This document shows, one piece after another, positions 1,642 to 57,561 of a DNA stretch of 64,000 nucleotides. The notes under the pieces were generated by a model. That model saw only the letters and a list, made by a program, of their open reading frames with translations. It made no database searches and was not told the origin of the DNA. A program made the position numbers and the translations under genes. The DNA comes from an uncultured Candidatus Saccharibacteria bacterium. GTDB taxonomy: Bacteria > Patescibacteriota > Minisyncoccia > Phycocordibacterales > VMEP01. Within the stretch, counting starts at the first letter, position 1. Every line of letters begins with the position of its first letter. The stretch covers positions 5,622 through 69,621 of the forward strand of contig CAZOFV010000001.1 of the NCBI GenBank assembly GCA_964579635.1, given 5' to 3'.

Positions 1642-1717
1642 CCGCCCATAGCTCAGTTGGTAGAGCAGCTCCCTTTTAAGGAGAGGGTCGCAGGTTCGAC
1701 TCCTGCTGGGCGGACCA
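1642..1717 (+). tRNA. tRNA-Lys (anticodon UUU), CCA encoded
   Basis: Folded by hand: 7-bp acceptor stem CCGCCCA/TGGGCGG, D-arm GCTC..GAGC, anticodon loop CTTTTAA, T-arm GCAGG TTCGACT CCTGC, discriminator A plus CCA. Confidence 0.85.
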
Positions 1718-1724
1718 AAGAAAC

Positions 1725-1752
1725 AAAACCTGCCCTGCGGCAGGTTTTGTGC
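1725..1752 (+). terminator. Hairpin plus T-run immediately after tRNA-Lys
   Basis: Stem AAAACCTGCC / GGCAGGTTTT followed by Ts. Confidence 0.4.
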
Positions 1753-1755
1753 TTT

Positions 1756-1815
1756 GGTCCGAGGCGTAGCGATGTCGCGTGAGCACACGCGACCGCGAGC
1801 CGGGGTCGCGGAAAT
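1756..1815. repeat. GC-rich hairpin repeat, copy F of the tRNA-associated repeat family
   Basis: Contains GAGCCGGGGTCGCGG and an AAATTTT/AAAATT palindrome shared with copies at 53.5 kb and 57.1 kb. Also carries the GTCGCGTGAGCACACGCGAC hairpin. Confidence 0.4.
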
Positions 1816-2159
1816 TTTGTCTTCAAAATTGTTCGTGATGATAAGTTAACTTAGGTCTTTATAATCACACCAAGCTACTTATTATTAACTATCCCACTTG
1901 TCCACACCCACCCTTGCCTATCCTTGTAGTGTTGCTACACTAAATACAGGGTTGGTCAAAAAATCATTATTTAAGAACCAACCACCCGTTGTTGTAAATC
2001 AAAAGAAGGAAAGCGGCTCCGCTTATGGGCACACAAAACAAACCTTTTGAACGATTTGCCACACACCAGTTCTTTAAACAATTTTCGCTCTCTTGAGTTC
2101 TCCTCTCAAGAAGCACGTATCTCGGCCTCGCTTTCTAGCTTGAGGCCAATCTCTTCAAA

Positions 2160-6334: not shown

Positions 6335-6404
6335 AACAAGAAGAAAGCCCCGCTATCTTAACGATGTGGGGCTTTCTTCTTAAAAATTAAACGTTTTTTT
6401 CGGC

Positions 6405-8366
6405 TTATTGCTTAGAAACATTAGAAGCTCTATATGTACCAACTGCATACCTAGAAAGTATTCCTAATCCAAGAATTATAAGGATTAATAATAACCAACC
6501 AAGCAATGTGTTTGGCAAGAAACTAGAACCGAATATTGGAGCTAAAGCTCGTGAAGACTGGTAGTATTCACCATTTAACAAAACGTAGGCAATTGCTTCT
6601 TCTTGTGTGTTGTTTTCTCTCGTATAAACCATATCAACACTCACAACAACAACCTTACCGCTTTCAATAGTGTTATCTACAACAGTTTCAACGGTAAATG
6701 AGCCTGCCTCTCCGGCCTCTAAGGTCTTTAGATCAACTGTTAAAGTTCTGTCTTTGTCGTTGTAGTAACCTCTTGATGAATCAATGTATGAAAGTTCTCC
6801 AGGAAGAACAACTCTCACAGCAACATCGTGCAAGCTTTCACTTGTCTTGGTGTTGCGATAATTGATTGTAAAGATAACCCTATCTCCACGAGAGACGTTG
6901 TCTCTATTTGAAGAAATAGAAAGTATTATTGCTGATGTCTTTGTACTCCCAGAAGCACCACTTACAACGTAAGTTGTTTTGGAAGAAGTAACAGTTGGTG
7001 AAGTAACAATAACCGAAGTTGTGTTAGATGAACCACCAGTAGTAAAGCTCATTATGTCTCCTTTGTGTGTTCCGTATTGATTTTGAACTACTGCACGGTA
7101 GTAATAAGTCCTTCCATTAACAAGCCCAGTGAGATCTTCAGAAAAGGCTAGGGTCACGGCGCTTCCAATATTCTTACTTTGAGTTGTGTTTCCTAGAGAG
7201 CTTGTTGTTCCCCATTCAAACCAACCAGTTGTATTAACACCACCGTTAATAAAGACGAGACCATTTACCCTTGCCGTTGTTTGCCCTATCGAAGTAGCAA
7301 GAGTTGTAACAGCTGTTGGCTGACTGCCTCCAACGTAGTTATAGGAAGAAGAGTTGTATTGATTGTTATTATTTGTCACAAACGACATAACTGTTCCATA
7401 AACAGTACCGTTTGAGTTCTGAGCAACGGCTCTGTAGTAGTAAGTTGTATTTGGACTCAAACCATTAACTGTTTGTGTAAATGTTCCGGATGAAGTTTGG
7501 TTTAACTTAAGTGTTGTGTTGTTAAAGTAACTAGAATTTGTACCCCATTCAAACCAACGAGTTGTGTTTGTGCTTCCGTTTGGATCAACAAATCCTTGTA
7601 AAATAGCGAACGTGTCACCATTTTGAACTGTTGAATATGTCATGACAAAAGGTGTCTGACCGGTATTTTGATTACAGTTGTAGTTGTTATAACCACAGTT
7701 GTTGCTATTGTTGCTAGTTGTTGTGAAAGATTGAGTTCCGCCATAAACAACAGCACTACCTGAATTTTGTCCTACTGCTCGGTAGTAATAAGTCGTATTT
7801 TGATTTAAGGAATTATTAACTGAGTAGAAAGTTGTGTTAACTGTTCCGATATTTACCTGTGGAGTAGTATTTCCAAAGGAATTTGATGTCCCCCATTCAA
7901 ACCAAACATTTGTCATTACACCTCCATTTGAGTTAACAGAACCTTGAAAAGTTGCTGAATTACTAGAAACGCTTGTTGGAGCATTTGTTGTTATTATTGG
8001 AGACGCCTGATTTTGATTTTGCTGTGAACAAGAGAGAGTTGATGCACTTTGAATATTTGCATAGAAAATATTTTGAGGTGCAGAAGAATCCCAGAAAACC
8101 AACTGGTATTGATAGGTGGAGTTACATGGGATATCAACTGTCTCTGAAACAGGTTGTGTCCCGTTAACAGCTGTACTTCTTGTTGGTGTCACAGATGTTG
8201 CACCACCACTAATACTGTAGGAGAAATAATAACCTGCGTTAGTAGGAACGCTTGAGGTTATGTCACCACGAAATGTAACACTATCCGCTAGAACAGGTGT
8301 TGCAAAAACTCCCATTGCTAAAACGGCGACTGCGACAAAAAATGATTTTATTAATGATTTTTTCAT
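6405..8366 (-). CDS. Secreted cell-surface protein with four Fn3-like repeats, a DUF11-like domain and a C-terminal LPNTL/hydrophobic/charged-tail anchor
   Basis: Signal peptide present. Repeated W.EWGT...YYYRAV.QN..G modules. C-terminus is FLPNTLLG followed by a TM segment and an RYAVGTYRASN tail. Confidence 0.7.
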   Translation of the reverse strand: MKKSLIKSFFVAVAVLAMGVFATPVLADSVTFRGDITSSVPTNAGYYFSYSISGGATSVTPTRSTAVNGTQPVSETVDIPCNSTYQYQLVFWDSSAPQNIFYANIQSASTLSCSQQNQNQASPIITTNAPTSVSSNSATFQGSVNSNGGVMTNVWFEWGTSNSFGNTTPQVNIGTVNTTFYSVNNSLNQNTTYYYRAVGQNSGSAVVYGGTQSFTTTSNNSNNCGYNNYNCNQNTGQTPFVMTYSTVQNGDTFAILQGFVDPNGSTNTTRWFEWGTNSSYFNNTTLKLNQTSSGTFTQTVNGLSPNTTYYYRAVAQNSNGTVYGTVMSFVTNNNNQYNSSSYNYVGGSQPTAVTTLATSIGQTTARVNGLVFINGGVNTTGWFEWGTTSSLGNTTQSKNIGSAVTLAFSEDLTGLVNGRTYYYRAVVQNQYGTHKGDIMSFTTGGSSNTTSVIVTSPTVTSSKTTYVVSGASGSTKTSAIILSISSNRDNVSRGDRVIFTINYRNTKTSESLHDVAVRVVLPGELSYIDSSRGYYNDKDRTLTVDLKTLEAGEAGSFTVETVVDNTIESGKVVVVSVDMVYTRENNTQEEAIAYVLLNGEYYQSSRALAPIFGSSFLPNTLLGWLLLILIILGLGILSRYAVGTYRASNVSKQ

Positions 8367-10202: not shown

Positions 10203-10523
10203 GATAGTCCTCCTCTGTAAAAAAACGATTAAAAAGAATAGTTAAACCTGTTTATATTATTAGCATATCTTAAACAAAAAGTCAAGCTATCCGTAATATC
10301 CCCATACCTTGGAATCACTTACTAATTGTGTGTGTTTTGTATTAACAAGCCAAAAATACCATTAAAAAACATTGCGCAGTGCGACGGCACGAGAATAGTA
10401 AATTTTCAGCAGAAAATTATACGTGTTTTTTTGTGGTATTTTAAAAAAAGATATGCGTGTTTTCAGAAACAAAAGCTAAAATACCCCTTTGGAATAAGCT
10501 GAAAATAAAGTATTATTTGATGA

Positions 10524-12224
10524 ATGCAAGAATTTGATGACAAAAAACAAGATGACCGTTTATCTTTTTTAAGAAAAAGAGAAGAGGAAGATCTTATAAA
10601 AATATTATCTGACAAATACGGAATACCTTATATAGACCTCTCTACTGTTTCAATTGAAGGTGATGCTCTTAAAATAATTTCTGAAGAAAAAGCTCGAGCT
10701 GCTGAAATTGCTCCATTCCAACTAATAAACAAAAGGGCTTTTATTGCTGTTCGCTCCCCTGACCGCAATGACACCAAAATAGCCTTGGCGGAAATATCTT
10801 CAAAGGGGTACACTCCAAATTTATTTATCACCTCTACCGCAAGCTTAGAGAGAGTTTGGGCTCGTTATAAAGAAGTTTCTTTTGCTTCTGAATCAAAATC
10901 GGGACTTCTTGATGTTTCCGCTGAATTTCTAAATGAAGCGTTTGAAAAAATAAAAACAATTCCCGACATAACCAATATGGTTAATGATGTCTTAGGCAAA
11001 ACTGGAGGACATAAAATATCAGTAATGTTAGAAATTCTTTTGGCTGGGTCAGTTGCTGTTGGTGCTTCTGATATTCACATAGAACCAGAAGACGGGAGTG
11101 TTCATATTAGAGCGCGTCTTGATGGTGTTCTTGAAAACCTCCTCACTATAAATTACGAAACTTATAAACTTCTTTCTTCTAGAATAAAACTACTCTCTGG
11201 CTTAAAACTTAACGTTATCGCATCCGCCCAAGATGGACGCTTTAGTATTAAACTAAACGAAAAAGAAATAGAGATTCGTTCCTCTGTTATCCCTGGTGCA
11301 TATGGCGAATCTTTTGTTATGCGTGTTTTAAATCCAGAAAGTATCGCTGTTCCATTTGAAGATCTTGGTGTAAACAAACGACTTTTTGAAATTATAGAAA
11401 AAGAATTAAAACGTCCTAATGGAATTATTTTAACCACCGGACCAACTGGTTCTGGTAAAACAACAACCCTATATGCCTTTTTAAGAAAAATTTACTCCCC
11501 TGGAAGTAAGGTGATTACAATCGAAGACCCAATTGAATATCACTTAGAAGGAATCACTCAAACACAAACAAACGAAGAAAAAGGCTACACCTTTTTGGAG
11601 GGACTAAGATCCGCATTACGCCAAGACCCGGATGTAATAATGGTTGGTGAAATCCGCGACACAGAAACAGCAAAAATTTCTATAAACTCAGCTTTAACTG
11701 GACACTTAGTTTTTTCAACCCTACACACCAATACGGCGGCTGGTACAATCCCCCGTTTAATAGACCTTGGAGTTGATGCAAAAATAATAAGCTCAGCTCT
11801 TAACATCTCCCTTGCTCAACGTCTTGCAAGAAAACTTTGTAACTATTGCAAAAAAGAAGCTCCTGCTAACGACGAGGAAAAAAGGATTTTAAATACAGTT
11901 ATTGAACGTATTAAGTCTGAAGGAAAAGAATACGCCCTAACTTCAATAGAATCTTTACTTCCTATTTCAAACCTCTTCCAAGCAGTTGGTTGTGAAAAAT
12001 GTAACAACACTGGTTTTAAGGGGCGTGTTGGTATTTACGAAGCAATATTAACTGATGAAAATATAGAAAAAATTATTAACGAAAATCCAACTGAGCGAGA
12101 AATAAAAAAAGCGAGCTTGCCACAAAAAATTCTTGATTTACAACAAGACGCAACAATCAAAATCATTCAGGGAATAACATCTTTAGACGAAGTTGGTCGT
12201 GTTGTAGACATAGAAGAGGTTTAA
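10524..12224 (+). CDS. pilB: Type IV pilus / type II secretion assembly ATPase (PilB/GspE family)
   Basis: GspE N-terminal domain, then Walker A GPTGSGKTTT, Asp box, His box, and the C-terminal Cys4 cluster CNYC...CEKC. Confidence 0.85.
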   Translation: MQEFDDKKQDDRLSFLRKREEEDLIKILSDKYGIPYIDLSTVSIEGDALKIISEEKARAAEIAPFQLINKRAFIAVRSPDRNDTKIALAEISSKGYTPNLFITSTASLERVWARYKEVSFASESKSGLLDVSAEFLNEAFEKIKTIPDITNMVNDVLGKTGGHKISVMLEILLAGSVAVGASDIHIEPEDGSVHIRARLDGVLENLLTINYETYKLLSSRIKLLSGLKLNVIASAQDGRFSIKLNEKEIEIRSSVIPGAYGESFVMRVLNPESIAVPFEDLGVNKRLFEIIEKELKRPNGIILTTGPTGSGKTTTLYAFLRKIYSPGSKVITIEDPIEYHLEGITQTQTNEEKGYTFLEGLRSALRQDPDVIMVGEIRDTETAKISINSALTGHLVFSTLHTNTAAGTIPRLIDLGVDAKIISSALNISLAQRLARKLCNYCKKEAPANDEEKRILNTVIERIKSEGKEYALTSIESLLPISNLFQAVGCEKCNNTGFKGRVGIYEAILTDENIEKIINENPTEREIKKASLPQKILDLQQDATIKIIQGITSLDEVGRVVDIEEV

Positions 12225-48039: not shown

Positions 48040-48150
48040 ATTTGTATATTCGTGTAATTATATCATAAAAAAAATAAAGGTATCAGATTTTTCTTTCAAA
48101 AATAGATAACGTGCTTGGGTGACTGTCGTGGTAAAATATTTTACGACATC

Positions 48151-49074
48151 ATGACTCAAGATTTAAAGAGTTTAAAACAGCAATTTCTTGAATATATTGA
48201 AATTGAACGTGGAAGAAGTTTAAAAACTGTTCGTAATTACGATGCTTATCTTGAGCGTTTCCTTACTCAAACAAACGCTAAATATCCAAAAGATATAACC
48301 GATGACTCAATAAGAGAATTTCGTCTTTGGTTGAATAGACAAGAGGGTCGCCGTGAGCGCGGGATGAGTGCAGGAACGTTAAAAAAGAAAACCCAGAACT
48401 ATTATTTAATTGCTTTACGTATTTTTCTTAAATATTTAATGAAAAGAGGGATTGAAGCTCTTTCCCCTGATCGTATTGAGCTTGCAAAGGTAGCAGAGAG
48501 GTCGCTTGATCTTATTTCTTTAGATGAACTAGAGCGCTTACTTAAAGCTCCCGATGGCGGTGATTTAAAAAGCTTGCGAGATAAGGCTATTTTAGAATTA
48601 CTTTTCTCAACAGGGCTTCGTGTTTCGGAGTTATGTTCTCTTCCCCGCGATATCGACCTTCGTAAAGATGAATTTTCGGTACGAGGAAAAGGAGAAAAAG
48701 TACGAGTTGTTTTTCTTTCCGATTCGGCAAAAGAAGCAATTAAAAAATATTTAGCAAAGCGAGGAGATATGGAGGATGTTCTTTTTATTGGAACAGGAAG
48801 CGTTGGAAAAAAGAAAGGAGAAATAACACACCTAACGACCCGTTCGGTTGAAAGAATCGTTGCACAATATGCAATTAAGGCCGGTATCTCAAAAAAAGTA
48901 ACCCCACACGTTATCAGACACTCATTTGCCACAGACCTACTTGGTAATGGGGCAGATATTCGTTCTGTTCAAATGATGCTTGGGCATGCCAGTATTTCAA
49001 CCACACAGATTTACACCCACGTGACAGACAAGGCCCTCAGAGAAATACATAAGAAGTTCCACTCTAAAAAATAG
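48151..49074 (+). CDS. Tyrosine site-specific recombinase of the XerC/XerD family
   Basis: C-terminal catalytic region HVIRHSFATDLL...LGHASISTTQIYTHV. Start placed at the internal MTQDLKSL. Confidence 0.85.
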   Translation: MTQDLKSLKQQFLEYIEIERGRSLKTVRNYDAYLERFLTQTNAKYPKDITDDSIREFRLWLNRQEGRRERGMSAGTLKKKTQNYYLIALRIFLKYLMKRGIEALSPDRIELAKVAERSLDLISLDELERLLKAPDGGDLKSLRDKAILELLFSTGLRVSELCSLPRDIDLRKDEFSVRGKGEKVRVVFLSDSAKEAIKKYLAKRGDMEDVLFIGTGSVGKKKGEITHLTTRSVERIVAQYAIKAGISKKVTPHVIRHSFATDLLGNGADIRSVQMMLGHASISTTQIYTHVTDKALREIHKKFHSKK

Positions 49075-50272: not shown

Positions 50273-51742
50273 TTATTTTACCCAGTGTTTTTTTCTTATC
50301 TCAGATACTTCCTTTGATTCCTCCTTCTCTTTTTTAGCCTTTCCTTCTTCTCCTAATTTCTTTAACTCTTCAATAGATAGTTTTATCATTTCAATTGAAC
50401 GTTTTTCTAGGTATTCAGTTGTGTTTCTTTCTGGTTCATCAAGTACTTCCTCAAGGAGGGCGTGTAAAACATAACCGATTTTAGGACCTGGAGTTTCATG
50501 TGTAACTTCCATAATACGTTTCCCGTCTATTTTTAGCATGGCAACCGATATCGGCGCACGCATCGCCTCTTCGATCATAGACTCATATTTTCTAAGCCGA
50601 TACGGGGTCTCTTTTGGCCTTCCCATGCCGATACGGTCGCAAGCACGAAGTTTCATTAAATCCCAAACATGTTCTGGTCCAACATTTTTCACGATACGCC
50701 TTACTGCCGATAAGGTTATTTTATCTACGTCTGAAAAAAATAAATGGTAACGCACTAGCTTTGAAACAACATCTACAATTTCTCGCGGAAAACGCATTCT
50801 TTCTAGAATTTTTTTTGTTACACGTGAACCAACTACGTCATGCCCATAGAAGGTATAATCTTTCTTTTCGTCAGACCAACGACGTGTTTCAGGCTTAGAA
50901 ACATCATGAAATAGAGCAGAAAGTCTCACGTGTAACGGCCATTCACGATCTGCTGAGTGTTGCAACGCCCTTAGGTTGTGCTCCCAGACATCATAGATAT
51001 GATCACCATTTTGTTTAACATTAATCCCAGCCTCTGTTTCAGGTGAAACATATTTAAGAATACCAAGTCGATTAGCTAAAACTATCCCAACCATTGGGTT
51101 TGGAGACATAATCAATTTAATGAATTCATCACGAATACGCTCTTGGGCAATTTTACCGAGGTTTTTAACGTTGTTTTCTAAGGCTTTTTCAGTCTCGCCG
51201 TTAATTATGAAACCTAATTCAGTGGCTAATCTGATAGCTCTGAGGACCCGAAGAGCATCTTCGGCAAATCTTTCCTCTGGGTTACCTACAGCTCTAATAA
51301 CTTTGTCCTTTATATCTTTTTGTCCGTTATACGGATCAACAATTTGTCCTTTAGTAATATCGTAGGCGATTGCGTTGATGGTGAAGTCTCGTCGCTTTAA
51401 ATCGTCTTCTAGTTTTTTACTAAAAACAACTGAATCTGGCCTACGGTAGTCGCTATACTTCCCCTCAATTCTGTATGGAGTTATTTCAACTACTTTTAAA
51501 GATTCATCTTCAGTATTTTCATTTACAACACCAACTGTTCCATACTCGTTTTCGTAAAATGTTTTTGGAAATATTTTAATAATATCTTCTGGTCTTGCGT
51601 TAGTTGTGAAATCCCAATCTTTTGGTTTTCTTCCTGCCAATACATCACGAACACAACCTCCAACTAGGTATGCCTCAAAACCAGCTTTTTCCAAAGATTC
51701 GCTTATGGCGCCTATGTTTTCTGGAATATTTTCCGGTTTCAT
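50273..51742 (-). CDS. cca: CCA-adding tRNA nucleotidyltransferase with HD domain
   Basis: GGCVRD.L, the DxD nucleotidyltransferase motif, and a central HD motif. Confidence 0.85.
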   Translation of the reverse strand: MKPENIPENIGAISESLEKAGFEAYLVGGCVRDVLAGRKPKDWDFTTNARPEDIIKIFPKTFYENEYGTVGVVNENTEDESLKVVEITPYRIEGKYSDYRRPDSVVFSKKLEDDLKRRDFTINAIAYDITKGQIVDPYNGQKDIKDKVIRAVGNPEERFAEDALRVLRAIRLATELGFIINGETEKALENNVKNLGKIAQERIRDEFIKLIMSPNPMVGIVLANRLGILKYVSPETEAGINVKQNGDHIYDVWEHNLRALQHSADREWPLHVRLSALFHDVSKPETRRWSDEKKDYTFYGHDVVGSRVTKKILERMRFPREIVDVVSKLVRYHLFFSDVDKITLSAVRRIVKNVGPEHVWDLMKLRACDRIGMGRPKETPYRLRKYESMIEEAMRAPISVAMLKIDGKRIMEVTHETPGPKIGYVLHALLEEVLDEPERNTTEYLEKRSIEMIKLSIEELKKLGEEGKAKKEKEESKEVSEIRKKHWVK

Positions 51743-51806
51743 TGTTTAAAAATTTTACTCCAGGTTTTGATATTTTCCTAATTTTCCTTATGATATATGG
51801 GATTAA

Positions 51807-51880
51807 GCCCCCGTAGTGAAATGGATATCACGACAGTCTTCGAAACTGTTATTCCAGGTTCGAATCCTGGCGAGGGCACA
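51807..51880 (+). tRNA. tRNA-Arg (anticodon UCG), no encoded CCA
   Basis: Hand fold: acceptor GCCCCCG/CGAGGGC with one mismatch; anticodon stem ACAGT/ACTGT, loop CTTCGAA; T-arm CCAGG TTCGAAT CCTGG. Confidence 0.7.
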
Positions 51881-51883
51881 TGA

Positions 51884-52035
51884 AGTGTGCTTTCGCAGCA
51901 AGCCAACTGCTTGGCTTGCGTCAGGATTCGAAAGCCGGAGCATGTCGCTCTGCGACAGCGAGGCGGGGTCGCAGGTTCTTTGTGTATGAGAATGTTTTCA
52001 TTCGAAGACACTTAGAAACCTGTGACCGATTCTAT
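51884..52035. repeat. tRNA-associated hairpin repeat, copy A
   Basis: Hairpins GCAAGCCAA ctg CTTGGCTTGC and GTCGC tct GCGAC, the core GAGGCGGGGTCGCAGGTTC, and a terminal GTGACCGATTC motif. Confidence 0.5.
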
Positions 52036-52108
52036 AGATTAACAATAAATATAAAAACATTTTTATTTGAACTTATCCTAATCTCTGTTAAAATACTTCG
52101 ATAAAAAT

Positions 52109-52179
52109 GCGGGTATGGTTTAGTGGTAGAACACGTCCTTGCCAAGGATGAGACGGGAGTTCGATTCTCCCTACCCGCA
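52109..52179 (+). tRNA. tRNA-Gly (anticodon GCC), no encoded CCA
   Basis: Acceptor GCGGGTA/TACCCGC, anticodon loop TTGCCAA, T-arm GGGAG TTCGATT CTCCC. Confidence 0.85.
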
Positions 52180-52189
52180 CAGCGAACAA

Positions 52190-52390
52190 AGTGAGCAAGC
52201 GTGTAGAGCAAGCCAACTGCTTGGCTTGCGTCAGGATTCGAAAGCCGGAGCATGTCGCTCTGCGACAGCGAGGCGGGGTCGCGACCTTCGTTGCGGAGAT
52301 TTATCGTAGCAGAAGAGTTGTGACCGATTATCTTTGATTTCGGAGTTATTAACGAGTAATCCGTGACCGATTCTCTCTTTCAGGATCTTC
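52190..52390. repeat. tRNA-associated hairpin repeat, copy B, with two trailing GTGACCGATT motifs
   Basis: Near-identical to copy A over about 75 nt. Confidence 0.5.
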
Positions 52391-52646
52391 ACCTTTACGG
52401 ACAATTTTTCACATAAATGAGCATATTTTGTAAAGAGTAATCTTATAAAAATAAGGCTAAAATAGGTCAAAAGTGGGGATAAGTCGGGGGACAATGTTAA
52501 TAAGAGACACTAAAATTGTCCAAGAAAACGACCTTTAAACGCCTTAAAATGGCTTTAAATAAGGGGATATTGTCTTTTTCCACAGAAACTGCTTATAAAG
52601 TTTCACGTGAAACTAAAAAGATGTTTATTTTGATATATAATCATAT

Positions 52647-53066
52647 TTGATGGATTCAAAAGTATTGAAAAACAAGGAGAGACAGCATGTTGGTAGGCTT
52701 GGTGAGGATATTGCTTGTCGTTTTTTAGAAGAAAAAGGTTTTAAGGTTATCGATAGAAACTACAGAAAGTTTATTGGAGAAATAGATATTATTGCCAAAA
52801 AGGACAAAATTTTATACTTTGTTGAAGTAAAAACTGTTTCTCGTGAAAACTTTAAAGAAGGTGAAAGTGGATTGAGTACTCAATATAGAGCTGAAGATAA
52901 TATTCATCCACAAAAGTTAAAGCGCTTAAGTAGAGCAATTAATGCCTATCTTTCAGAAAAAGTGGGAAATGTTGATTATGTTTGGCAATGCGATGCGATT
53001 ATTGTTAATTTATTCACTGCTAACAAGATTGCAAAAGTTAAGTATTTAGAAAATATTTTTGCGTAA
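52647..53066 (+). CDS. yraN: YraN/UPF0102-family predicted endonuclease
   Basis: GEDIACRFL...GEIDIIA...LYFVEVKT signature. Confidence 0.75.
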   Translation: MMDSKVLKNKERQHVGRLGEDIACRFLEEKGFKVIDRNYRKFIGEIDIIAKKDKILYFVEVKTVSRENFKEGESGLSTQYRAEDNIHPQKLKRLSRAINAYLSEKVGNVDYVWQCDAIIVNLFTANKIAKVKYLENIFA

Positions 53067-53124
53067 TTTTTTGTTTTTTGTGATAGGATTGATAAATTGT
53101 CGGATTGGAGGAGGTTTGTTTTTA

Positions 53125-53160
53125 CGGGGTGTAGTATAGAGGTAGTACGTCTGCTTTGGG
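53125..53160 (+). pseudogene. 5' fragment of tRNA-Pro (36 nt, up to the anticodon), a duplicate of the intact gene 75 nt downstream
   Basis: Identical to nt 1-36 of the intact tRNA-Pro, then diverges. Confidence 0.5.
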
Positions 53161-53199
53161 GTTAAGAAGATTTTTCGTTTAGTATTTTGGTTTCATCGT

Positions 53200-53270
53200 C
53201 GGGGTGTAGTATAGAGGTAGTACGTCTGCTTTGGGAGCAGATAGCCCGAGTTCGATTCTCGGCACCCCGA
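53200..53270 (+). tRNA. tRNA-Pro (anticodon UGG), no encoded CCA
   Basis: Acceptor CGGGGTG/CACCCCG, anticodon stem-loop TCTGC TTTGGGA GCAGA, T-arm CCCGAG TTCGATT CTCGG. Confidence 0.85.
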
Positions 53271-53349
53271 CGATGAAACTAAACGATTTTTAGAAATCTT
53301 ATTAACCGGAAGTCCGGGGGACTTCCGTGGAAATTTCCCGAAGAAATTT

Positions 53350-53381
53350 AGATAGCCCGAGTTCGATTCTCGGCACCCCGA
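53350..53381 (+). repeat. 3' fragment of tRNA-Pro (32 nt identical) plus a duplicated downstream flank CAATGTAACTAA
   Basis: Exact copy of the last 32 nt of tRNA-Pro. The flank is similar to that after the intact gene. Confidence 0.5.
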
Positions 53382-53439
53382 CAATGTAACTAAATGGTGT
53401 GTTAGAAACTCTTTGTAATCAGAAGTTCATTATAAACGT

Positions 53440-53592
53440 AACGAAGCACTGTAAGGGGTGAGCAGGCAAAGGGCTTTGCCTGCGTCCGGAATCGAAAGCC
53501 GGAGCGCGACGGCGCGAGGCGGGGCTGCGCAAAAATTTAGTAAAATTTTATGCGTAGCCGATTCTCGGCACCCCGACAATGTAACTAAGTAA
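53440..53592. repeat. tRNA-associated hairpin repeat, copy C, ending in a second tRNA-Pro 3'-end fragment (53558-53576) plus flank
   Basis: Hairpin GCAGGCAAAG..CTTTGCCTGC carries compensatory changes relative to copies A and B. Also has GAATCGAAAGCCGGAGC and a GCAAAAATTTAGTAAAATTTTATGCG palindrome. Confidence 0.45.
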
Positions 53593-53602
53593 CTAAGGTT
53601 TT

Positions 53603-54760
53603 TTAATCTATTTCGTTGAGCAATAAGAACATTAGTGGGATAGATAGATTTTCATGAAAATCTTTTTGAATCAAATCCAAGTCTTGTGAAATAAATGCAT
53701 TTAAGTTTTTTCCGGTTTCATCCTCTATTTTTCTATTGATATGACCAGGTGTAATAGCAAATAATTCTCTGGTGTTTGTTTCTTTTGTTTCTGTGCTTGT
53801 TGTAATAATCCCTTCAAGTTTTCCAGTTGAACGATTGACCACCGCCCCACCAGAAGATCCTTGTTGAGAAAGAATGTTTCCTTCAATTGAAATAATGTCT
53901 AGTAAAGCACCATCATGGAAGTTATATAATTCTTTAATAACCCCAATACTTGAGGTAAGAAAAAGATTTGTTTGAATTGTTACACCACCTAAAAACCCAG
54001 CAGGGTAAGCAGAAATTAAGACAGGAAGGCCACGCAACACATTTTCTGGGTCTATGTTTGGTTCGAGATAGGGGAAGGTGAGTGGTAATTGTTTTCCATC
54101 TGTTGTCCCAACAACACGAAGAAGGGCGAAATCGTCTTCACCTGTGCCAGTTGGCTTTTCTTGTTTGATAACTTTTGAATTTTCGGTTACCCATTTTTTT
54201 GAGACATAGATAGGTTCAATCAAAAAAGCTGGTGAAGCAGGGGAGCCTTGTCTTGCGATACAGGTTATATAATTTTTTACTCCGTAATCACGAAGTAGGA
54301 AGTATTGTCCAATGTGGGCATTTGTTAGGATAACTCCTTTATCGCTAATAAAGACCCCACTTCCCGATAATGGCTTGAAATCGCCACCATTTTGAGTGGT
54401 ACAAAGGATATTAACAATAGTACTGCGGGTTAGTGCGTTCAGTGGTTCAAGAGGGAGAATTTCAAGCGTAACGGTACGTGGGCTTGTTGAGGCGACAATA
54501 ACTGGTTCCGTTTTACTTACGGTTGATGTTTTTAGGTTTTTTGTAGTAGTTGTTGCGATTTTTTTTAATGAGTCTGTGGTTGTTGTTCCTTTTTCTGGGG
54601 AAGATGTAATTTTAGAAGTATTGTTTTCTTCTGTTTTTATAACATTTGGCGAGATTGTTGGTGTTTCTTTTTGGATATTATTTATCGGGAATATTGAAAA
54701 AATTCCAGCAATAATACCAATTAGGGTGTTTCTTAGTGCTGTTTCTATTATTTCAAGCAT
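53603..54760 (-). CDS. Membrane-anchored trypsin-like (S1) serine protease
   Basis: His region ILTNAHIG, DFALLRV, and GSSGGAVVN around the catalytic Ser. N-terminal TM segment. Confidence 0.75.
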   Translation of the reverse strand: MLEIIETALRNTLIGIIAGIFSIFPINNIQKETPTISPNVIKTEENNTSKITSSPEKGTTTTDSLKKIATTTTKNLKTSTVSKTEPVIVASTSPRTVTLEILPLEPLNALTRSTIVNILCTTQNGGDFKPLSGSGVFISDKGVILTNAHIGQYFLLRDYGVKNYITCIARQGSPASPAFLIEPIYVSKKWVTENSKVIKQEKPTGTGEDDFALLRVVGTTDGKQLPLTFPYLEPNIDPENVLRGLPVLISAYPAGFLGGVTIQTNLFLTSSIGVIKELYNFHDGALLDIISIEGNILSQQGSSGGAVVNRSTGKLEGIITTSTETKETNTRELFAITPGHINRKIEDETGKNLNAFISQDLDLIQKDFHENLSIPLMFLLLNEID

Positions 54761-54829
54761 TGATATGTTGTTGTCAGAATAAGTTTACTAAATATTACCT
54801 TATCTGATAATATGTCGGATACGTAGTTT

Positions 54830-54900
54830 GCGGGATTAGTTAAATGGTATAACTCCAGTTTTCCAAACTGGTGTCGGGAGTTCGATTCTCCCATCCCGCA
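54830..54900 (+). tRNA. tRNA-Gly (anticodon UCC), no encoded CCA
   Basis: Acceptor GCGGGAT/ATCCCGC, anticodon loop TTTCCAA, T-arm GGGAG TTCGATT CTCCC. Confidence 0.85.
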
Positions 54901-55037
54901 CACAGTAATACTAGGTAGTACTCAGTCGGACTAAGCACGAAATAGCCAAGAATCCCCAAAGAGGCCCCAATTGTTGCCTCTGTGGCATTTTCTCGCGCCT
55001 TCACCCAGTTCCCCTCAGGTGAGAACATATTCACCAT

Positions 55038-55205
55038 ATGGCACGCGTCACCGTTACCTTCTCGATCTCCCTCCCGCCAGAAATGGCAGAAGAACTTGAG
55101 AAAATTAGAAAGAAGGAGCATCGGACCCGCTCCGAGCTTCTGCGTGAAGCGCTACGTCGATATATTTCCGCCAGATCTCAGGACGTCCCCGCACCTGGGA
55201 TTTGA
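55038..55205 (+). CDS. Ribbon-helix-helix (CopG/NikR-N/ParD-like) DNA-binding protein, 55 aa
   Basis: MARVTVTFSISLPPEMAEELEKIRKKEHRTRSELLREALRRYIS is a classic RHH pattern. It overlaps the longer but unrecognisable ORF 54982..55263, which is in another frame. Confidence 0.6.
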   Translation: MARVTVTFSISLPPEMAEELEKIRKKEHRTRSELLREALRRYISARSQDVPAPGI

Positions 55206-55268
55206 ACTTTCTAAGAAATTCGTTGTCGTTTGCAGTAGGCGGTCTGCTTATGAAAGGGGGTGAGGGAG

Positions 55269-55472
55269 ATGGGATGGTTTGGATGGTCTACTGAAAAGGA
55301 CACAGGAGACGAGGTCAACGTCAAGATGGAAAAGAGTTCGAGTGACGCCTCGCACGTCCATTACATACGTTCTACCGACGGCGACAAAGCCGATCACTCG
55401 CATGTGGTCTATACAAAGGAGTCAGACGGAAGTCGCCACGCACACGGTTATCCGAGTAAGAGCAAGCGCTAA
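55269..55472 (+). CDS. Small His-rich hypothetical protein (about 67 aa; HxH, DHSH and HAH motifs)
   Basis: Strong SD GGGGGTGAGGGAG before the ATG. Immediately downstream of the RHH gene. Confidence 0.4.
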   Translation: MGWFGWSTEKDTGDEVNVKMEKSSSDASHVHYIRSTDGDKADHSHVVYTKESDGSRHAHGYPSKSKR

Positions 55473-55477
55473 CAGTC

Positions 55478-55882
55478 CTACGCCCGCTCCTTAACTGCAG
55501 TACGGTTAAGGAGTGGGCGTATTTGTTCTTCATAACGTCGTTCCAGTCCCTTCCGGCTATCTGTAGTTCCAGATCCTTCAGCAAACAACATCGCGTCCAG
55601 GAAGAAACTGCGGATATTCTCCGCATCAGAATTCTCTCGTTCAGGGAGATCCCATTCCGAAGCGATAAGGCAGACGGTCCCAAGATTCCAATCCGGCTCC
55701 ATCGCCGGGTCGTTGGGAAGGTTCTTCAATATATATTCCACTACCCTAAGCAGTACATCCTCTCCATCACCGGAAAGTCCGATGACATGTAGCAGGTGCG
55801 GGTTGTCATGAGTATCACGCACAATGCGGCCGAATTCCGGTCGAAACGCTGATCGTACGTATTTTGCAAATTGGTGCTCCAT
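55478..55882 (-). CDS. Hypothetical protein (islet)
   Basis: 134-aa ORF in GC-rich DNA; no recognisable motif. Confidence 0.35.
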   Translation of the reverse strand: MEHQFAKYVRSAFRPEFGRIVRDTHDNPHLLHVIGLSGDGEDVLLRVVEYILKNLPNDPAMEPDWNLGTVCLIASEWDLPERENSDAENIRSFFLDAMLFAEGSGTTDSRKGLERRYEEQIRPLLNRTAVKERA

Positions 55883-56047
55883 AGAAAAATACTAACTCTT
55901 GAAACTGAGTTGTCAATTAGCCCTGATCCATAGCGAAAAGCATGGTGTAAGTCACAACCTTTTCAGATATTTGGTAGCAGCGAGAATTGTTTTTAAAAAA
56001 AGGCCACTCCCGTGCTGGGGTGGCCTTTTTTCGGGGTGTCTCCCCGA

Positions 56048-56413
56048 TTAACGAACAAGAGATCGAAGGGTGTGGAATTGCTCGTGTGTTAAGCGCAGTT
56101 CATACCTCAAGCACTGACACGAGATGATTATGCTAATTGGGGTTATGAACAATACCGCTACGACAGAGAACCAGTTACCGGGCTGAACGACGTTGTATCC
56201 GATAAGGACCCCCGATACAGCAAAATATGACAGCGTCCAAACCAACGACGCCGTTAGCCACAAAACCCCACGGAGCCAGCGATCGCGTTCCTTTTGAAGC
56301 AATACACGGAGACGTCGCCTCAACCAAGGACGCTCGTTGAGTTCTTCTTGAATCTCAGCACAGTCTGTAATTCTTGTGATTCTTGAAAGGTGTCCCATTT
56401 TTTCTTCCTCCAC
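56048..56413 (-). CDS. Hypothetical two-TM membrane protein (islet)
   Basis: SD GGAGGAAG upstream. Terminator hairpin AGGCCAC..GTGGCCTTTTTT downstream. Confidence 0.45.
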   Translation of the reverse strand: MEEEKMGHLSRITRITDCAEIQEELNERPWLRRRLRVLLQKERDRWLRGVLWLTASLVWTLSYFAVSGVLIGYNVVQPGNWFSVVAVLFITPISIIISCQCLRYELRLTHEQFHTLRSLVR

Positions 56414-56612
56414 ACATTGTCACTACCCGAGCCAATCTCAGGTGGTAACAAATATGGAAGAGGAAACTTCTCACTACAACATACATCTCCCACCATTTCC
56501 GTCAATGGTACGTTTTTCAGAGTGAATATTTCTTCACTAGGTACTTACTTTTCGATTACGCTATATTCATATAGTGTATGTGAGTTAATTCTTGAATGAA
56601 TAATAACAACCA

Positions 56613-56888
56613 ATGCGAATCGACGATACAGATTATGAAGAAATACTGGCGCTTCTTGATCACAAGAGCGTTCCGTTTGATCCCACTGAAGCCCGACAGG
56701 CAGTCGAGAATTTTGTCGATCTCGTTGAACTCTTGATGCGACCACTTCCACTGCCACCGGCCGGGGAAACTTCGTTCAAGCAGCCTTCTTCAGATCATCC
56801 GGGACCATCTTCTCCGTCGCTTCCACCGACTGAATTAATTCAAGAAGTTGAGGGTCGCGACTCAGGTATCGAGTTCGAACATCGTTGA
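56613..56888 (+). CDS. Hypothetical Pro-rich protein (islet)
   Basis: ORF only. Confidence 0.3.
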   Translation: MRIDDTDYEEILALLDHKSVPFDPTEARQAVENFVDLVELLMRPLPLPPAGETSFKQPSSDHPGPSSPSLPPTELIQEVEGRDSGIEFEHR

Positions 56889-56914
56889 TGAGCCCGCACA
56901 AATTTGAGCAAAGC

Positions 56915-57230
56915 GAAAAGTTGGGCGGGATGAGCAAGCAAACTGCTTTGCTTGCGTGGAGAATCGAAAGCCGGAGCATGTCGCTTTGCGACAGCGAGGC
57001 GGGGTCCGCGAGTACTTATGAGCGAAGCGAATTAGTAACTCGTGACCGATTCCCATCCCGCACAAAGCGTTAAGAAAACATGCTAGGAACAGCATGTTTT
57101 CAGCTTTGTGGGGCGGAGGCTGACGAGCCGAGCCGGGGTCGCGCAAAAATTTAGCAAAATTTTATGCGTGACCAGATTTGAACTATAGCGAAACGAATTA
57201 GTAACTTGTGACCGATTCTCTAATCTTTTT
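56915..57230. repeat. tRNA-associated hairpin repeats, copies D and E (tandem, partially duplicated), each ending in ..AATTAGTAACT(C/T)GTGACCGATTC
   Basis: Copy D hairpin GCAAGCAAA ctg CTTTGCTTGC has compensatory changes against copies A and B. Copy E shares GAGCCGGGGTCGCGCAAAAATTTAGCAAAATTTTATGCG with copies C and F. Confidence 0.5.
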
Positions 57231-57288
57231 CACAAAAAAACAAAAGACCGCACAAATGCGGTCTTTTATTTTTAGAGATGAGTGAATA

Positions 57289-57561
57289 TTATTTCACTGC
57301 GTCTTTCAAACCCTTGCCTGCGCGGAACTTAGGAACGTTCATTGCTGGTACGTTTACTGGTTCGCCAGTGCGAGGATTTCGGGCGGTTCTTGCTGCGCGT
57401 TTCTTTACAACGAATGTTCCGAAACCTGCAACAGAGACCTCATCACCCTTTTTGAGTGATTTTACGATCGAGTCAAACACGGTCTCAACAGCTTGTTCTG
57501 CAGAAACTTTTGTTCCGCCTAACACTCCATGGACTGCGTCGACGATGGCTGCTTTATTCAT
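57289..57561 (-). CDS. hup: HU-family DNA-binding protein
   Basis: MNKAAIVDAV...GFGTF...RNPRTGE motifs. Confidence 0.9.
   Translation of the reverse strand: MNKAAIVDAVHGVLGGTKVSAEQAVETVFDSIVKSLKKGDEVSVAGFGTFVVKKRAARTARNPRTGEPVNVPAMNVPKFRAGKGLKDAVK

Follow-up and report, generated by a model that had tools for sequence, protein, structure and literature searches.

Why should a GC-rich, hairpin-forming repeat follow every tRNA gene in a stretch of bacterial DNA? The question arises from the window, the 64,000-nucleotide stretch of an uncultured Candidatus Saccharibacteria genome analysed here, in which a sequence-only reading had noticed such a family and compensatory changes in one of its hairpins. 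The family is real: all the motifs quoted for it were found at or beside their places, and each of the five tRNA genes in the window has at least one copy downstream, as had been claimed. Exact CGAAAGCCGGAGC stands at 51929, 52239, 53493 and 56965, and with up to two mismatches there are nine matches against 0.58 expected, a number that none of 100 shuffles attains; GTGACCGATTC occurs five times and GAGSCGGGGTCGC six times, against 0.59 and 0.48 expected from shuffles. A 76-nt repeat block recurs at 51897, 52207 (100% identical to the one at 51897), 53461 and 56933. A covariance model built from copies in other genomes finds seven copies in the window. We consider that these are probably non-autonomous, protein-less miniature elements that insert site-specifically into tRNA and tmRNA genes.

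What had looked like a series of independent hairpin modules turns out to be the helices and joining strands of a single three-way junction, which forms the core and folds in the tRNA-sense strand. Its first helix, P1, pairs a complement of the T-loop and T-stem (often of the acceptor too) with the tRNA 3' segment; there follow a junction GAAA, helix P2 with a GGA/GA internal loop, a junction GG and helix P3, which has an invariant G·U pair and a bulged A; P3 and P1 meet precisely at the point of insertion, ...GUGAC|CGAWUCC. When 31 sequences are aligned without gaps, pairing holds in 91% of cells, compared with 76% for shuffles and some 40% when the partners are slid, and P3 is 98% paired, with covariation in 12 of 16 pairs. 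An alignment of 120 sequences, the kind of check that had been proposed, has 90% of cells paired and double-sided (compensatory) changes in 29 of 33 pairs; P2 and P3 covary strongly, all three pairs of P2a show compensation, and the conserved G·U pair is kept in 113 of 115 sequences. The fold is strand-specific, because G·U pairs exceed A·C mismatches by 166 to 55. Position 59 in P1 is paired in 90% of copies (44% in shuffles), and a pristine 110-nt unit folds exactly as P1, P2 and P3, with z=-10.8 under RNA and z=-9.8 under DNA parameters. The compensatory changes first seen in hairpin 1 (hp1) hold family-wide: in 20 distinct copies from different genomes all nine pairs of its 9-bp stem are formed and covary, the loop is always CUGC, and 10-12 nt lie between the hairpin and the core that follows it. 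This covariation proves selection on a single-strand fold, which may act as single-stranded DNA or as RNA.

Where does the fold sit? The element lies in the tRNA T-loop, between nucleotides 55 and 56. Along the tRNA strand, the unit opens with its own copy of the tRNA 3' segment (from C56 as far as the discriminator), by which the gene stays intact, and continues with a variable hairpin region and the conserved core, rich in GC; at the right end stands the displaced original 3' segment of the host, often with its encoded CCA and native flank. Among 55 loci with a genuine direct repeat (three chance 12-mers were left out), the repeat begins at G57, the first base after P3, in 43; C56 is the last base of P3 and common to both, and later starts go with an inserted hairpin or a decayed fragment. 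Direct repeats measure 13-60 nt, with a mode of 16-20 nt, and lie 108-250 nt apart, and the typical unit of 110-250 nt encodes no protein. At six loci (L012, L014, L022, L100, L103 and L123) an encoded CCA is present in the downstream repeat and not in the upstream one, so that the downstream repeat is the displaced original. About 20% of direct repeats reach 5-40 nt into the native flank (L006, L098, L041, L066 and the tRNA-Pro of the window), which a target-site duplication with a fixed first nick explains more naturally than a carried tRNA end, and this counts against the reading that we prefer.

The window itself holds a stack of relics and mosaics (copies A, B, C, D, D2 and E), all on the forward strand like their target genes. 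At 1642..1717 lies tRNA-Lys(UUU), as had been called, with a 69.2-bit Rfam tRNA match whose alignment gives the anticodon loop CUUUUAA; the ARAGORN label tRNA-Stop (tta) for this gene is wrong. Behind it, copy E (1748..1850; covariance model 22.3 bits, E=4e-4) is a degenerate, GAGCC-type P2a variant without an intact P1 and with GAGCCGGGGTCGC at 1797. After tRNA-Arg(UCG) (51807..51879) comes copy A, a long form of repeat family D1 (51889..52032; 38.2 bits over 51928-52029), in which we can follow the acceptor complement GCTTTCG (51889-51895), hp1 (51898-51919), the P1 5' strand CAGGATTC (51922-51929), the junction GAAA (51930-51933), P2 (51934-51964), P3 (51967-52027) and the junction GTGACC|GATTC (52022-52032); its displaced tRNA fragment has decayed. 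Copy B, after tRNA-Gly(GCC) (52109..52180), is a mosaic (52199..52373; 37.9 bits over 52232-52334) with acceptor complement GCGTGTA (52199-52205) and hp1 (52208-52229). Its core is 100% identical to that of copy A over 76 nt, and its T-stem complement therefore fits tRNA-Arg, not tRNA-Gly. P3 of copy B ends at 52325, and an older P3 3' remnant with a GTGACCGATTC junction stands at 52342-52373; L034 holds a pristine orthologue of this copy. The terminal GTGACCGATTC motif, correctly noticed as a shared feature, is really the junction of the element with the displaced T-loop.

The short-form core of copy C (53455..53559; 94.7 bits over 53483-53569), after tRNA-Pro(UGG) (53200..53271), comprises acceptor complement GGGGTG (53455-53460), hp1 (53462-53483), and the P1 5' strand, junction, P2 and P3 (53484-53559), the P3 base GGCU/AGCC being a compensatory variant of GGUC/GACC. 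It ends at the displaced original tRNA-Pro 3' segment (G57 to the 3' end) with 11 nt of native downstream flank (53560..53588), the right-hand member of a 29-nt direct repeat with 53365-53393. After tRNA-Gly(UCC) (54830..54901), the long-form copy D (56925..57047; 48.3 bits over 56955-57057) has acceptor complement GCGGGAT (56925-56931), hp1 (56934-56955), the P1 5' strand GGAGAATC (56958-56965), and P2 and P3 up to 57047; its predicted fold is a three-way junction with a tRNA-like acceptor stem (z=-4.4). The displaced tRNA-Gly(UCC) 3' segment that follows, GATTC(-TC)CCATCCCGCACA (57048..57064, a direct repeat with 54888-54901), has a 2-nt deletion identical to that in L110. Further out, copy D2 of repeat family D3 (57097..57218; 70.9 bits over 57097-57183) has helix P2a exchanged for GGC/GCC, a compensation seen in the alignment, and ends in an older P3 3' remnant with a GTGACCGATTC junction (57187-57218). 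Copy D2 and this remnant are older members of a serial-insertion stack.

The earlier interpretation stands as far as it describes a tRNA-tied repeat family under selection for its fold, and of the options it listed, attachment-site relics and a novel small mobile repeat fit best. Derivation from, or targeting of, tRNA-Lys is not supported: it had been drawn from a match of GGGGTCGCAGGTTC to the T-arm, of which only GGGGTCGC, the junction and base of P3, is conserved in the family, and AGGTTC is a variable part of P3 found in copy A alone. In fact, the core occurs at more than 100 public loci in Patescibacteria (CPR) and Elusimicrobiota, and at least 17 kinds of tRNA (including tRNA-Gln in L123) plus tmRNA are used. 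Every copy has the 3' segment of the very tRNA beside it, starting at T-loop nucleotide 56/57, together with the complementary strand. Whether copies always lie 3' of tRNAs had been raised as a check, and 72 of 81 testable copies do have a same-strand tRNA or tmRNA gene within 250 nt upstream (chance at most 3%); three copies sit after tmRNA genes. The Rfam search proposed alongside gave no family matching the core, even at E<=10. The canonical core is absent from IMG/VR, and an 80-nt short-form consensus had no blastn match in phage and plasmid records, so that no vector is known; the family is widespread and, with no match in literature searches, apparently undescribed.

Do the elements move? 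Relative L118 has an empty tRNA-Pro site, and the flank after its uninterrupted gene is the one found after the last repeat in the window (53560-53588) and in L034. The same tRNAs carry different variants in relatives at 88-95% identity, and tandem arrays occur at L057 and L107. Within 4 kb of the elements there is no recurrent protein family, in line with the lack of a cis-encoded protein. Against the insertion-element reading, neither an excised nor a circular form was observed, and since no enzyme was found, it is solely from insertion polymorphism that we infer mobility in trans. On this reading an element inserts in the T-loop, restoring the tRNA and displacing its original 3' end; fresh copies enter the intact tRNA and shove older ones outward, and these decay or recombine via their identical cores. 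The elements would be non-autonomous, and a trans-acting enzyme would carry out strand exchange of the T-loop sequence GGTT|CGAWTCC with the foot of the P3/P1 stack, probably recognising the folded single strand as in integron attC, CTX-phage attP and IS200/IS605 ends.

Those sites, attC, attP(+) and the IS200/IS605 ends with their miniatures, are small imperfect palindromes, specific to one strand and marked by conserved bulges or mismatches; their recombination point lies at the helix foot and the unit, once integrated, is a circularly permuted form of the folded site, all as in our elements, and protein-less miniature derivatives of this class are mobilised in trans. Dependence on IntI, Xer or Y1 transposase is established for those systems. 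The elements lack the RYYYAAC/GTTRRRY pair, a dif-like site and a TTAC-type target, and they form a three-helix junction in a tRNA T-loop rather than a single hairpin. They also resemble MITEs in being short, non-coding, multi-copy, patchy and probably trans-mobilised, with the two P1 strands as inverted-repeat ends. Unlike in MITEs, however, the 'duplication' is 13-60 nt with a fixed start rather than of fixed length, one 'inverted repeat' is supplied by the 3' end of the target gene itself, both site and orientation of insertion are strictly fixed, and no parent transposon was found. The tRNA group I introns of the same phylum are likewise structured, RNA-like insertions tied to tRNA genes, but they interrupt the anticodon loop (position 35/36 and others) and are self-splicing ribozymes detected by Rfam, whereas our elements, at 55/56, leave the tRNA intact, are too small and match no Rfam family.

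Could the fold serve primarily as a functional non-coding RNA? We hold this to be unlikely. Such an RNA would be transcribed by read-through from the tRNA promoter and freed by RNase P/Z, because P1 and the acceptor complement together resemble a tRNA minihelix; its role could be that of a ribozyme, of a protein-binding RNA or of a guide for insertion, with insertion secondary or RNA-caused. The conserved unpaired nucleotides and loops (GAAA, GGA/GA, AGCA, GACG, CUGC) do suggest a functional RNA more than a site of recombination, against the insertion-element reading. All helices covary, the invariant G·U and the junction and loop nucleotides are conserved in two phyla, the AGCA loop fits the ANYA tetraloop class of RNA, and the elements are GC-rich in a genome of roughly 36% G+C. 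The 7-bp acceptor-like stem of copy D is identical to that of tRNA-Gly, promoter-like sites lie ahead of tRNA-Arg, tRNA-Gly(GCC) and tRNA-Gly(UCC) (none is listed for tRNA-Pro), and no terminator-like site separates tRNA-Arg and tRNA-Gly(GCC) from copies A and B. At many loci, however (L020, L025, L098, L099, L103), a terminator-like hairpin and T-run stand between tRNA and core. Triloops of the kind C(GAA)G and GCGAAGC, which are hyper-stable as DNA and not as RNA, are frequent, DNA parameters predict the fold equally well, no Rfam family matches, and the quick decay of copies and their differences among close relatives are unlike a host RNA gene.

That the copies are no more than passive scars is improbable. 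They would then be attR/attL remnants, left behind when ordinary integrase-encoding phages, plasmids or islands that had entered the T-loop were deleted, and their hairpins would be functionless. The architecture is that of classical tRNA-gene islands, which, by the Islander account, regenerate their target and have a displaced fragment at the far end (PMC4383910), and serial integrations shift older elements outward in the tycheposons of Prochlorococcus as well (10.1101/2020.12.28.424599). Kilobase-sized DNA sometimes lies between tRNA and core (window 54903-56924; 12.4 kb in L123). Yet the same 110-250 nt unit is left at more than 60 independent loci, its helix covariation with strand-specific G·U is not expected of double-stranded-DNA protein-binding arms, and no integrase fragments were seen within 4 kb. 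By the same account, and like our elements, tyrosine-integrase islands and prophages (Islander definition; T-loop sublocation class) target the 3' part of a tRNA or tmRNA and restore the gene, the identity block begins at the T-loop crossover and the newest tandem copy adjoins the tRNA (PMC4383910); they differ in having an integrase and kilobases of genes, in serving one tRNA per integrase where a single element family serves at least 17 tRNA types plus tmRNA, and in that a covarying, strand-specific three-way junction fills most of our element. Tycheposons share the use of several tRNA genes and tmRNA in streamlined genomes, small islands from partial tRNA repeats, serial integrations and degenerate remnants, but have tyrosine recombinases, in clades that are each tRNA-specific, and cargo genes, and no structured non-coding core is described for them (10.1101/2020.12.28.424599).

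Least probable of all, and very doubtful, are retro-elements or nick-primed insertions, in which a precise first T-loop nick and a variable second one would give a variable target-site duplication. The first nick would join the element's conserved 3' end, and its 5' part, complementary to the tRNA 3' segment, would act as a guide or in the manner of a primer-binding site. In favour of this, the repeats start at a fixed point but end variably, at 13 to 60 nt, and at times take in native flank and terminator (L006, L098, L041, L066 and the tRNA-Pro of the window); the element has a conserved 3' and a variable or truncated 5' part, and its complement to the tRNA 3' end, 17-18 nt long, resembles a retroviral primer-binding site. 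But a variable second nick does not predict repeat lengths sharply peaked at the tRNA end (16-20 nt), and the upstream repeat is mostly not followed by native flank (L034 tRNA-Gly versus the window). Priming by mature tRNA is excluded, since the upstream repeat has no CCA at loci whose native gene does encode one, and no reverse transcriptase was found near any copy.

Against the scar reading, too, the sole recombinase to turn up, a large serine recombinase of L123, belongs to a separate tRNA-Gln-specific island family, of which only 2 of 80 islands carry the core and whose conserved junction, at the very 3' end of the tRNA, is AGTCAT (exact at 5 loci, with one mismatch at 4 more). In the window, the 2-kb stretch between tRNA-Gly(UCC) and copy D (54903..56924), set apart by its composition of about 50% G+C, has a gene for a ribbon-helix-helix protein of CopG type (55038-55205) and four orphan ORFs, and Pfam and PHROGs reveal no recombinase in it; the stretch is cargo or else a nested insertion of separate origin. 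It is present in L118 and L120 and missing from L110, where only about 180 bp join tRNA-Gly(UCC) to the HU gene flank, with a module inside (covariance model, L110 2152-2283). The seventh window copy (10362..10432, forward strand; 34.6 bits, E=1e-7) is an AT-rich, degenerate, intergenic relative and the only one with no tRNA alongside; its P1, a helix of 19 bp, bears no relation to any tRNA, and it retains the GACG-loop and AGCA-loop hairpins.

We rate the GC-rich repeats that follow tRNA genes in the window as miniature, structured, protein-less elements that integrate into tRNA genes and are island-like in function. The window holds five tRNA genes in all: tRNA-Lys(UUU) at 1642-1717, and tRNA-Arg(UCG), tRNA-Gly(GCC), tRNA-Pro(UGG) and tRNA-Gly(UCC), which start at 51807, 52109, 53200 and 54830. 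The upstream tRNAs score 65-71 bits against the Rfam tRNA model. ARAGORN calls the gene at 1642 a suppressor, "tRNA-Stop (tta)"; in the covariance-model alignment to Rfam its anticodon loop is CUUUUAA, that of an ordinary tRNA-Lys(UUU), and the Stop/tta label is a tool artefact and no evidence of stop-codon recoding. The sequence-only reading had placed the repeats downstream of all five genes, and there they are: copies A (after tRNA-Arg), B (tRNA-Gly(GCC)), C (tRNA-Pro), D and D2 (tRNA-Gly(UCC)) and E (tRNA-Lys), with every motif it quoted present in the window at counts far above chance. A 76-nt block recurs at 51897, 52207, 53461 and 56933, the block at 52207 being 100% identical to that at 51897, and the repeat blocks reach 45-51% G+C against about 31-42% for the genome.

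The architecture was read from loci set side by side on the tRNA strand and tested by counts. Along that strand, a spacer that varies between loci comes after the tRNA; in most cases it forms a hairpin, which may look like a terminator, and often a 7-nt complement of the acceptor 3' strand comes next. The long form carries hp1, a hairpin whose 9-bp stem covaries and whose loop is always CUGC; it lies 10-12 nt ahead of the core, which is a three-way junction of helices P1, P2 and P3. Next come the complement of the T-stem 3' strand and of T-loop nucleotides 57-60 (e.g. GGGAGAATC), GAAA, P2a (GCC/GGC), an internal loop GGA/GA, the P2b hairpin, GG and P3 (GGUCGCnnn.../...nnnGUGACC), which runs directly into G57 A58 W U C C and the remainder of the tRNA 3' end.

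Compensatory changes had been taken as a sign of selection on the fold, a claim that holds up: the helices are supported beyond both shuffled and slid controls, and the hp1 stem covaries. In an ungapped alignment of 31 short-form copies, 91.2% of cells are paired, as against 75.9% after column shuffling and 35-43% with slid partners, and 20 of the 33 pairs show double-sided changes. The 120 distinct copies aligned by a covariance model, an alignment that leans towards the model to which it was fitted, give 90.4% against 70.5% (shuffled) and 34-46% (slid), with double-sided changes in 29 of 33 pairs. None of 500 shuffles reached the observed pairing values. The base of P3, 9 bp, is close to 100% paired and covaries at positions 3, 7, 8 and 9, with an invariant G·U at position 5 and a bulged A after pair 9. 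P2a is invariant in the pattern-selected set and appears with GGC/GCC or GAC/GUC swaps in copies found by the model only. In P1, the six junction-proximal pairs are paired in 79-96% of cases and those beyond in 51-62%; at the variable T-loop position 59, pairing is kept in 90% of copies vs 44% after partner shuffling. There are 166 G·U pairs as against 55 A·C mismatches (at P3 position 7, 34 G·U and no A·C), and the fold therefore belongs to the tRNA-sense strand. For a pristine unit of 110 nt from a close relative of the window organism (L034, 6145-6254), the predicted fold consists of exactly the P1, P2 and P3 hairpins, with folding z-scores of -10.8 under RNA and -9.8 under DNA parameters, and copy D with its flanking tRNA fragment is predicted to form an acceptor-like stem, hp1 and the junction. 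Kissing between the CUGC loop of hp1 and AGCA loops was dismissed, as the two loops do not co-occur consistently.

The family extends well beyond the window. A scan of one genome per species with the pattern CGAAAGCCGGAGC-N(4-30)-GAGSCGGGG returned at least 117 loci, about a dozen of which are chance matches in ORFs of GC-rich genomes, devoid of the remaining structure. Among the matches listed, the others fall in Elusimicrobiota and Patescibacteria, the latter including Saccharibacteria, Paceibacterota/Parcubacteria lineages, Berkelbacteria and Moraniibacteriota. A tRNA or tmRNA gene lies on the same strand within 250 nt upstream in 72 of the 81 true copies with enough upstream sequence, at a median distance of 62 nt; chance would give at most 3%, even in these tRNA-rich loci. 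The targets comprise at least 17 kinds of tRNA (including tRNA-Gln in L123, a Saccharibacteria locus) and tmRNA (L031, L033, L073), and tandem arrays occur, with three copies in L057 and two in L107.

Besides A, B, C, D, D2 and E, the window holds one further copy, a degenerate AT-rich relative of the core at 10362-10432 (34.6 bits). It is intergenic, ahead of an ORF at 10524-12224, has no adjoining tRNA and is closed by a 19-bp helix unrelated to tRNA. Similar copies away from tRNA are found at L073:2488, L043:5641, L105:1235 and L048:6791; therefore the family, or its building blocks, the GACG- and AGCA-loop hairpins, is not confined to tRNA genes.

How the elements sit in their targets is read from direct repeats. 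An upstream repeat of at least 12 nt accompanies 58 of 109 pattern matches; three of these repeats, at L069 and at copies A and B of the window, are 12-mers that match by chance. Among the 55 genuine repeats, 43 begin at G57, the first base past P3, C56 doubling as the final base of P3; later starts reflect an inserted extra hairpin or a decayed fragment. The repeat usually spans 16-20 nt, to the end of the tRNA (range 13-60 nt), about 20% of repeats extend into the flank, up to 60 nt, and repeat-to-repeat spacing is 108-250 nt. Insertion is always past ...GGTT in the T-loop. In six loci (L012, L014, L022, L100, L103, L123) an encoded CCA is present in the downstream and not in the upstream repeat. 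The downstream repeat is thus the displaced original, and the 3' end of the functional tRNA is supplied by the insert, which is the classical logic of tRNA-gene islands (PMC4383910).

Three close relatives of the window organism allow a direct comparison. Two of them, L034 and L110, share 87-99% DNA identity with the window over long syntenic blocks, and a third, L118, shares 90% amino-acid identity with the window organism in one protein. In L118, tRNA-Pro is uninterrupted and directly followed by AATGTAACTAAGGTTTTTTAAT, which in the window and in L034 lies past the last repeat; L118 is therefore an empty site. At tRNA-Arg, tRNA-Gly(GCC) and tRNA-Gly(UCC), the relatives carry other variants of the element, short or long, pristine or decayed, between the same flanks. 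Old 3' remnants (...TTAGTAACTCGTGACCGAATCC) common to L034 and L118 lie outside the newer copies, with a more diverged counterpart in the window, a layout also described for tycheposons (10.1101/2020.12.28.424599), in which new insertions move older ones outward.

Within the window, copy C is the sole near-intact one (94.7 bits against the covariance model, 29-nt repeat), and the displaced fragment, the original 3' segment of the target tRNA pushed to the right end of the element, is gone from A, B and E. The cores of A and B are 100% identical despite their different tRNAs, and since the T-stem complement of B fits tRNA-Arg, B is a mosaic produced by recombination or conversion via the conserved core. 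Older layers are represented by copy D2 (at 57097), a swapped P2a variant found only by the covariance model, and by two GTGACCGATTC remnants (52342-52373 and 57187-57218). In L010 (oriented 6400-7521), the displaced fragment fits a tRNA 1.1 kb upstream and not the adjacent tRNA-Arg, with two tRNA genes in between: either tRNA genes travelled as cargo of the element or the locus was rearranged locally.

Which enzyme could mobilise such elements? Units of 108-250 nt leave no room for a gene. Clustering of all ORFs within 4 kb of 89 loci revealed no recurring recombinase family: the recurring ORFs are housekeeping genes (MiaA, YraN, FtsA-like, FtsH, SmpB, ClpB, IF-2, CCA-adding enzyme), and the only other one is a LAGLIDADG ORF at 4 loci. 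These LAGLIDADG-type homing-endonuclease ORFs lie among clustered tRNA genes near elements (L005 3236-3938 and three other loci) and may be intron-borne or free-standing. An origin from phages or plasmids was rejected, as an exact core-pattern scan of IMG/VR and a blastn search of phage and plasmid records with an 80-nt short-form consensus both gave 0 matches. The only tyrosine recombinase of the window is a predicted Xer-like ORF at 48115-49074, with homologous DNA at the same position in L034 and L105, and no TnpA is encoded in the 64 kb. Between tRNA-Gly(UCC) and copy D lies a GC-rich islet (54903-56924; about 50% G+C against roughly 36% for the genome). It holds no recombinase, only a CopG-type ribbon-helix-helix protein (55038-55205) and four orphan ORFs, one of them, of 134 aa, with homologues found only in close relatives at the same locus. 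The islet is absent from L110 and takes a variant form in L118 and L120.

A large serine recombinase was considered as the integrase of the family. In L123, 12.4 kb separate tRNA-Gln from the core, and the recombinase region (L123 5120-7462) lies next to the tRNA. It belongs to a clade (61-90% identity) of more than 500 metagenomic relatives whose genes sit just beside a tRNA gene. The core is nearby in just 2 of 80 metagenomic homologues (loci L124-L203), tRNA-Gln lies beside the recombinase gene on the opposite strand in 23 of the 80, a conserved AGTCAT follows tRNA-Gln (exactly in 5 loci, with one mismatch in 4 more), and no displaced T-loop fragment was found at the tRNA-Gln recombinase loci. 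For these reasons the enzyme was rejected as the integrase of the family and its islands are read as a separate type; the data suggest independent elements of candidate-phyla bacteria whose insertion point is the outermost 3' end of tRNA-Gln. L123 is accordingly read as a serine-recombinase island nested inside a small element.

Several known systems resemble the elements in part. Like Islander-type islands, they sit in a tRNA or tmRNA gene, regenerate it and leave the displaced fragment at the distal end, but those islands encode a tyrosine (or serine) integrase and the elements encode none. MITEs have a target-site duplication of fixed length, whereas the element has a repeat of 13-60 nt with a fixed 5' start. 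MITE termini are inverted repeats shared with an autonomous transposon; the two P1 strands of the element are inverted repeats of which one is tRNA sequence, and no autonomous partner was found in the 4-kb surroundings of the 89 loci, in IMG/VR or in phage and plasmid records. In integron attC sites, which are linked to intI/attI arrays, the R''/R' core sites read RYYYAAC/GTTRRRY, as compared with GGAWTCG/CGAWTCC for the junction strands of the element, and no integrase is found among the ORFs within 4 kb of the loci. Miniature derivatives of IS200/IS605 call for a Y1 (HUH) transposase in the genome and insert 3' of a fixed tetra- or pentanucleotide, with which ...GGTT is compatible. Group I introns interrupt tRNAs in the anticodon loop and have a P3-P9 catalytic core, whereas here the tRNAs are uninterrupted and the 110-nt unit has three hairpins; the elements have no relation to the group I introns that a recent catalogue lists for tRNA genes of Patescibacteria (PMC13011429).

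No described RNA family fits either. Covariance models of Rfam 15 at gathering score returned only tRNAs for the window and 18 loci, and at E<=10 nothing but tRNAs on 51700-57400, none overlapping the copies; small self-cleaving ribozymes, tmRNA, Y-RNA-like and integrase-linked motifs are among the families without a match. By eye, the junction resembles neither a hammerhead nor a twister core. Derivation from the T-arm of tRNA-Lys, an origin put forward in the sequence-only reading, is rejected. Searches of the accessible literature, by topic and by the sequence string GAAAGCCGGAGC, turned up no description of the element.

To explain how the elements insert, our best-supported working model is single-strand exchange by a structure-recognising enzyme acting in trans. 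Folded single-stranded substrates of an analogous kind are used at integron attC sites, CTX-phage attP(+) and IS200/IS605 ends. The unit as integrated would be circularly permuted relative to the fold: C56, where it starts, and the C of GUGAC, where it ends, would become neighbours at the P3/P1 junction, without any intervening unpaired nucleotide. P3 and P1 of the folded strand would then form a quasi-continuous helix whose continuous strand, ...GUGAC|CGAWUCC..., is to be compared with ...GGUU|CGAWUCC... in the target T-loop, and exchange would occur at the GUGAC|C point. A folded single strand is preferred over a double-stranded attP because the unit is small, its G·U pairs are strand-specific and its bulges are conserved. 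C(GAA)G and GCGAAGC loops are frequent in the elements and, together with the terminator-like hairpins between tRNA and core, favour a role at the DNA level; the conserved junction and loop nucleotides (GAAA, GGA/GA, AGCA, GACG, CUGC) and the mimicry of a tRNA minihelix favour one at the RNA level.

A nick-primed mechanism of the target-site-duplication type is kept alive next to strand exchange, since the native flank contained in the 20% of long repeats is poorly explained by a carried tRNA end. An unlikely reading places the activity, or the source of specificity, of a new ssDNA- or RNA-based insertion mechanism in the three-way junction. On that reading, the junction could be the folded ssDNA substrate of an undiscovered recombinase or transposase family in CPR and Elusimicrobia, aimed at the universally conserved T-loop, or it could be an RNA (ribozyme or guide) that reads the 3' segment of the tRNA with its P1 strand and would thereby programme where it inserts, with every tRNA or tmRNA gene as a potential target. 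With a size of about 110 nt, no smaller site-specific integrative element would be known. There is a small but real chance that the insertion mechanism itself is new. Priming by mature tRNA is rejected, as CCA is missing from the upstream repeat in cases where it is encoded in the native gene.

If our rating of the elements is right, CPR and Elusimicrobia host a large unannotated population of elements of about 110-250 nt, which exploit the one sequence shared by all tRNAs and tmRNA and, in genomes of very small size, reshape what surrounds the tRNA genes. The known tRNA-gene integrating elements would then extend down to protein-less miniatures with a conserved fold, and a trans-acting enzyme or nucleic-acid activity acting on T-loops would have to exist. 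The elements would also explain GC-rich "islands", partial tRNA fragments and contig breaks by tRNA genes in metagenome-assembled genomes. A compact module able to insert beside any tRNA and restore the gene could be of interest as a tool when the enzyme behind it has been identified.

Other small insertions are seen at tRNA genes. The tRNA-Pro locus of the window, where leader and trailer of the tRNA are inverted repeats, bears two more marks of insertion events. At 53125-53160, 39 nt ahead of the gene, nucleotides 1-36 of the tRNA (its 5' half) are present as a second copy. A 111-nt unit at 53272-53382, with a 33-nt repeat that starts in the variable loop (AGATAGCCCGAG...CCCCGAC) and a hairpin CCGGAAGTCC/GGACTTCCG, is not in L034 or L118; it is a different small tRNA-gene insertion, one without the three-way junction. 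Finally, a second and different small motif, GGAAAGGTGTACTGnnnCTGTAAGnnnCG, stands immediately before displaced 3' fragments of tRNAs, with T54 as their first nucleotide, in L143 (some 144 nt past tRNA-Asp), L199 (some 143 nt past tRNA-Arg), L013, L096 and L101. Related to it is an optional hairpin, GYGTAMTCRC, which separates GTGACCGAA from the tRNA fragment in L012, L020, L021, L055, L104 and L115. This probably represents another family of miniature T-loop-inserting elements.
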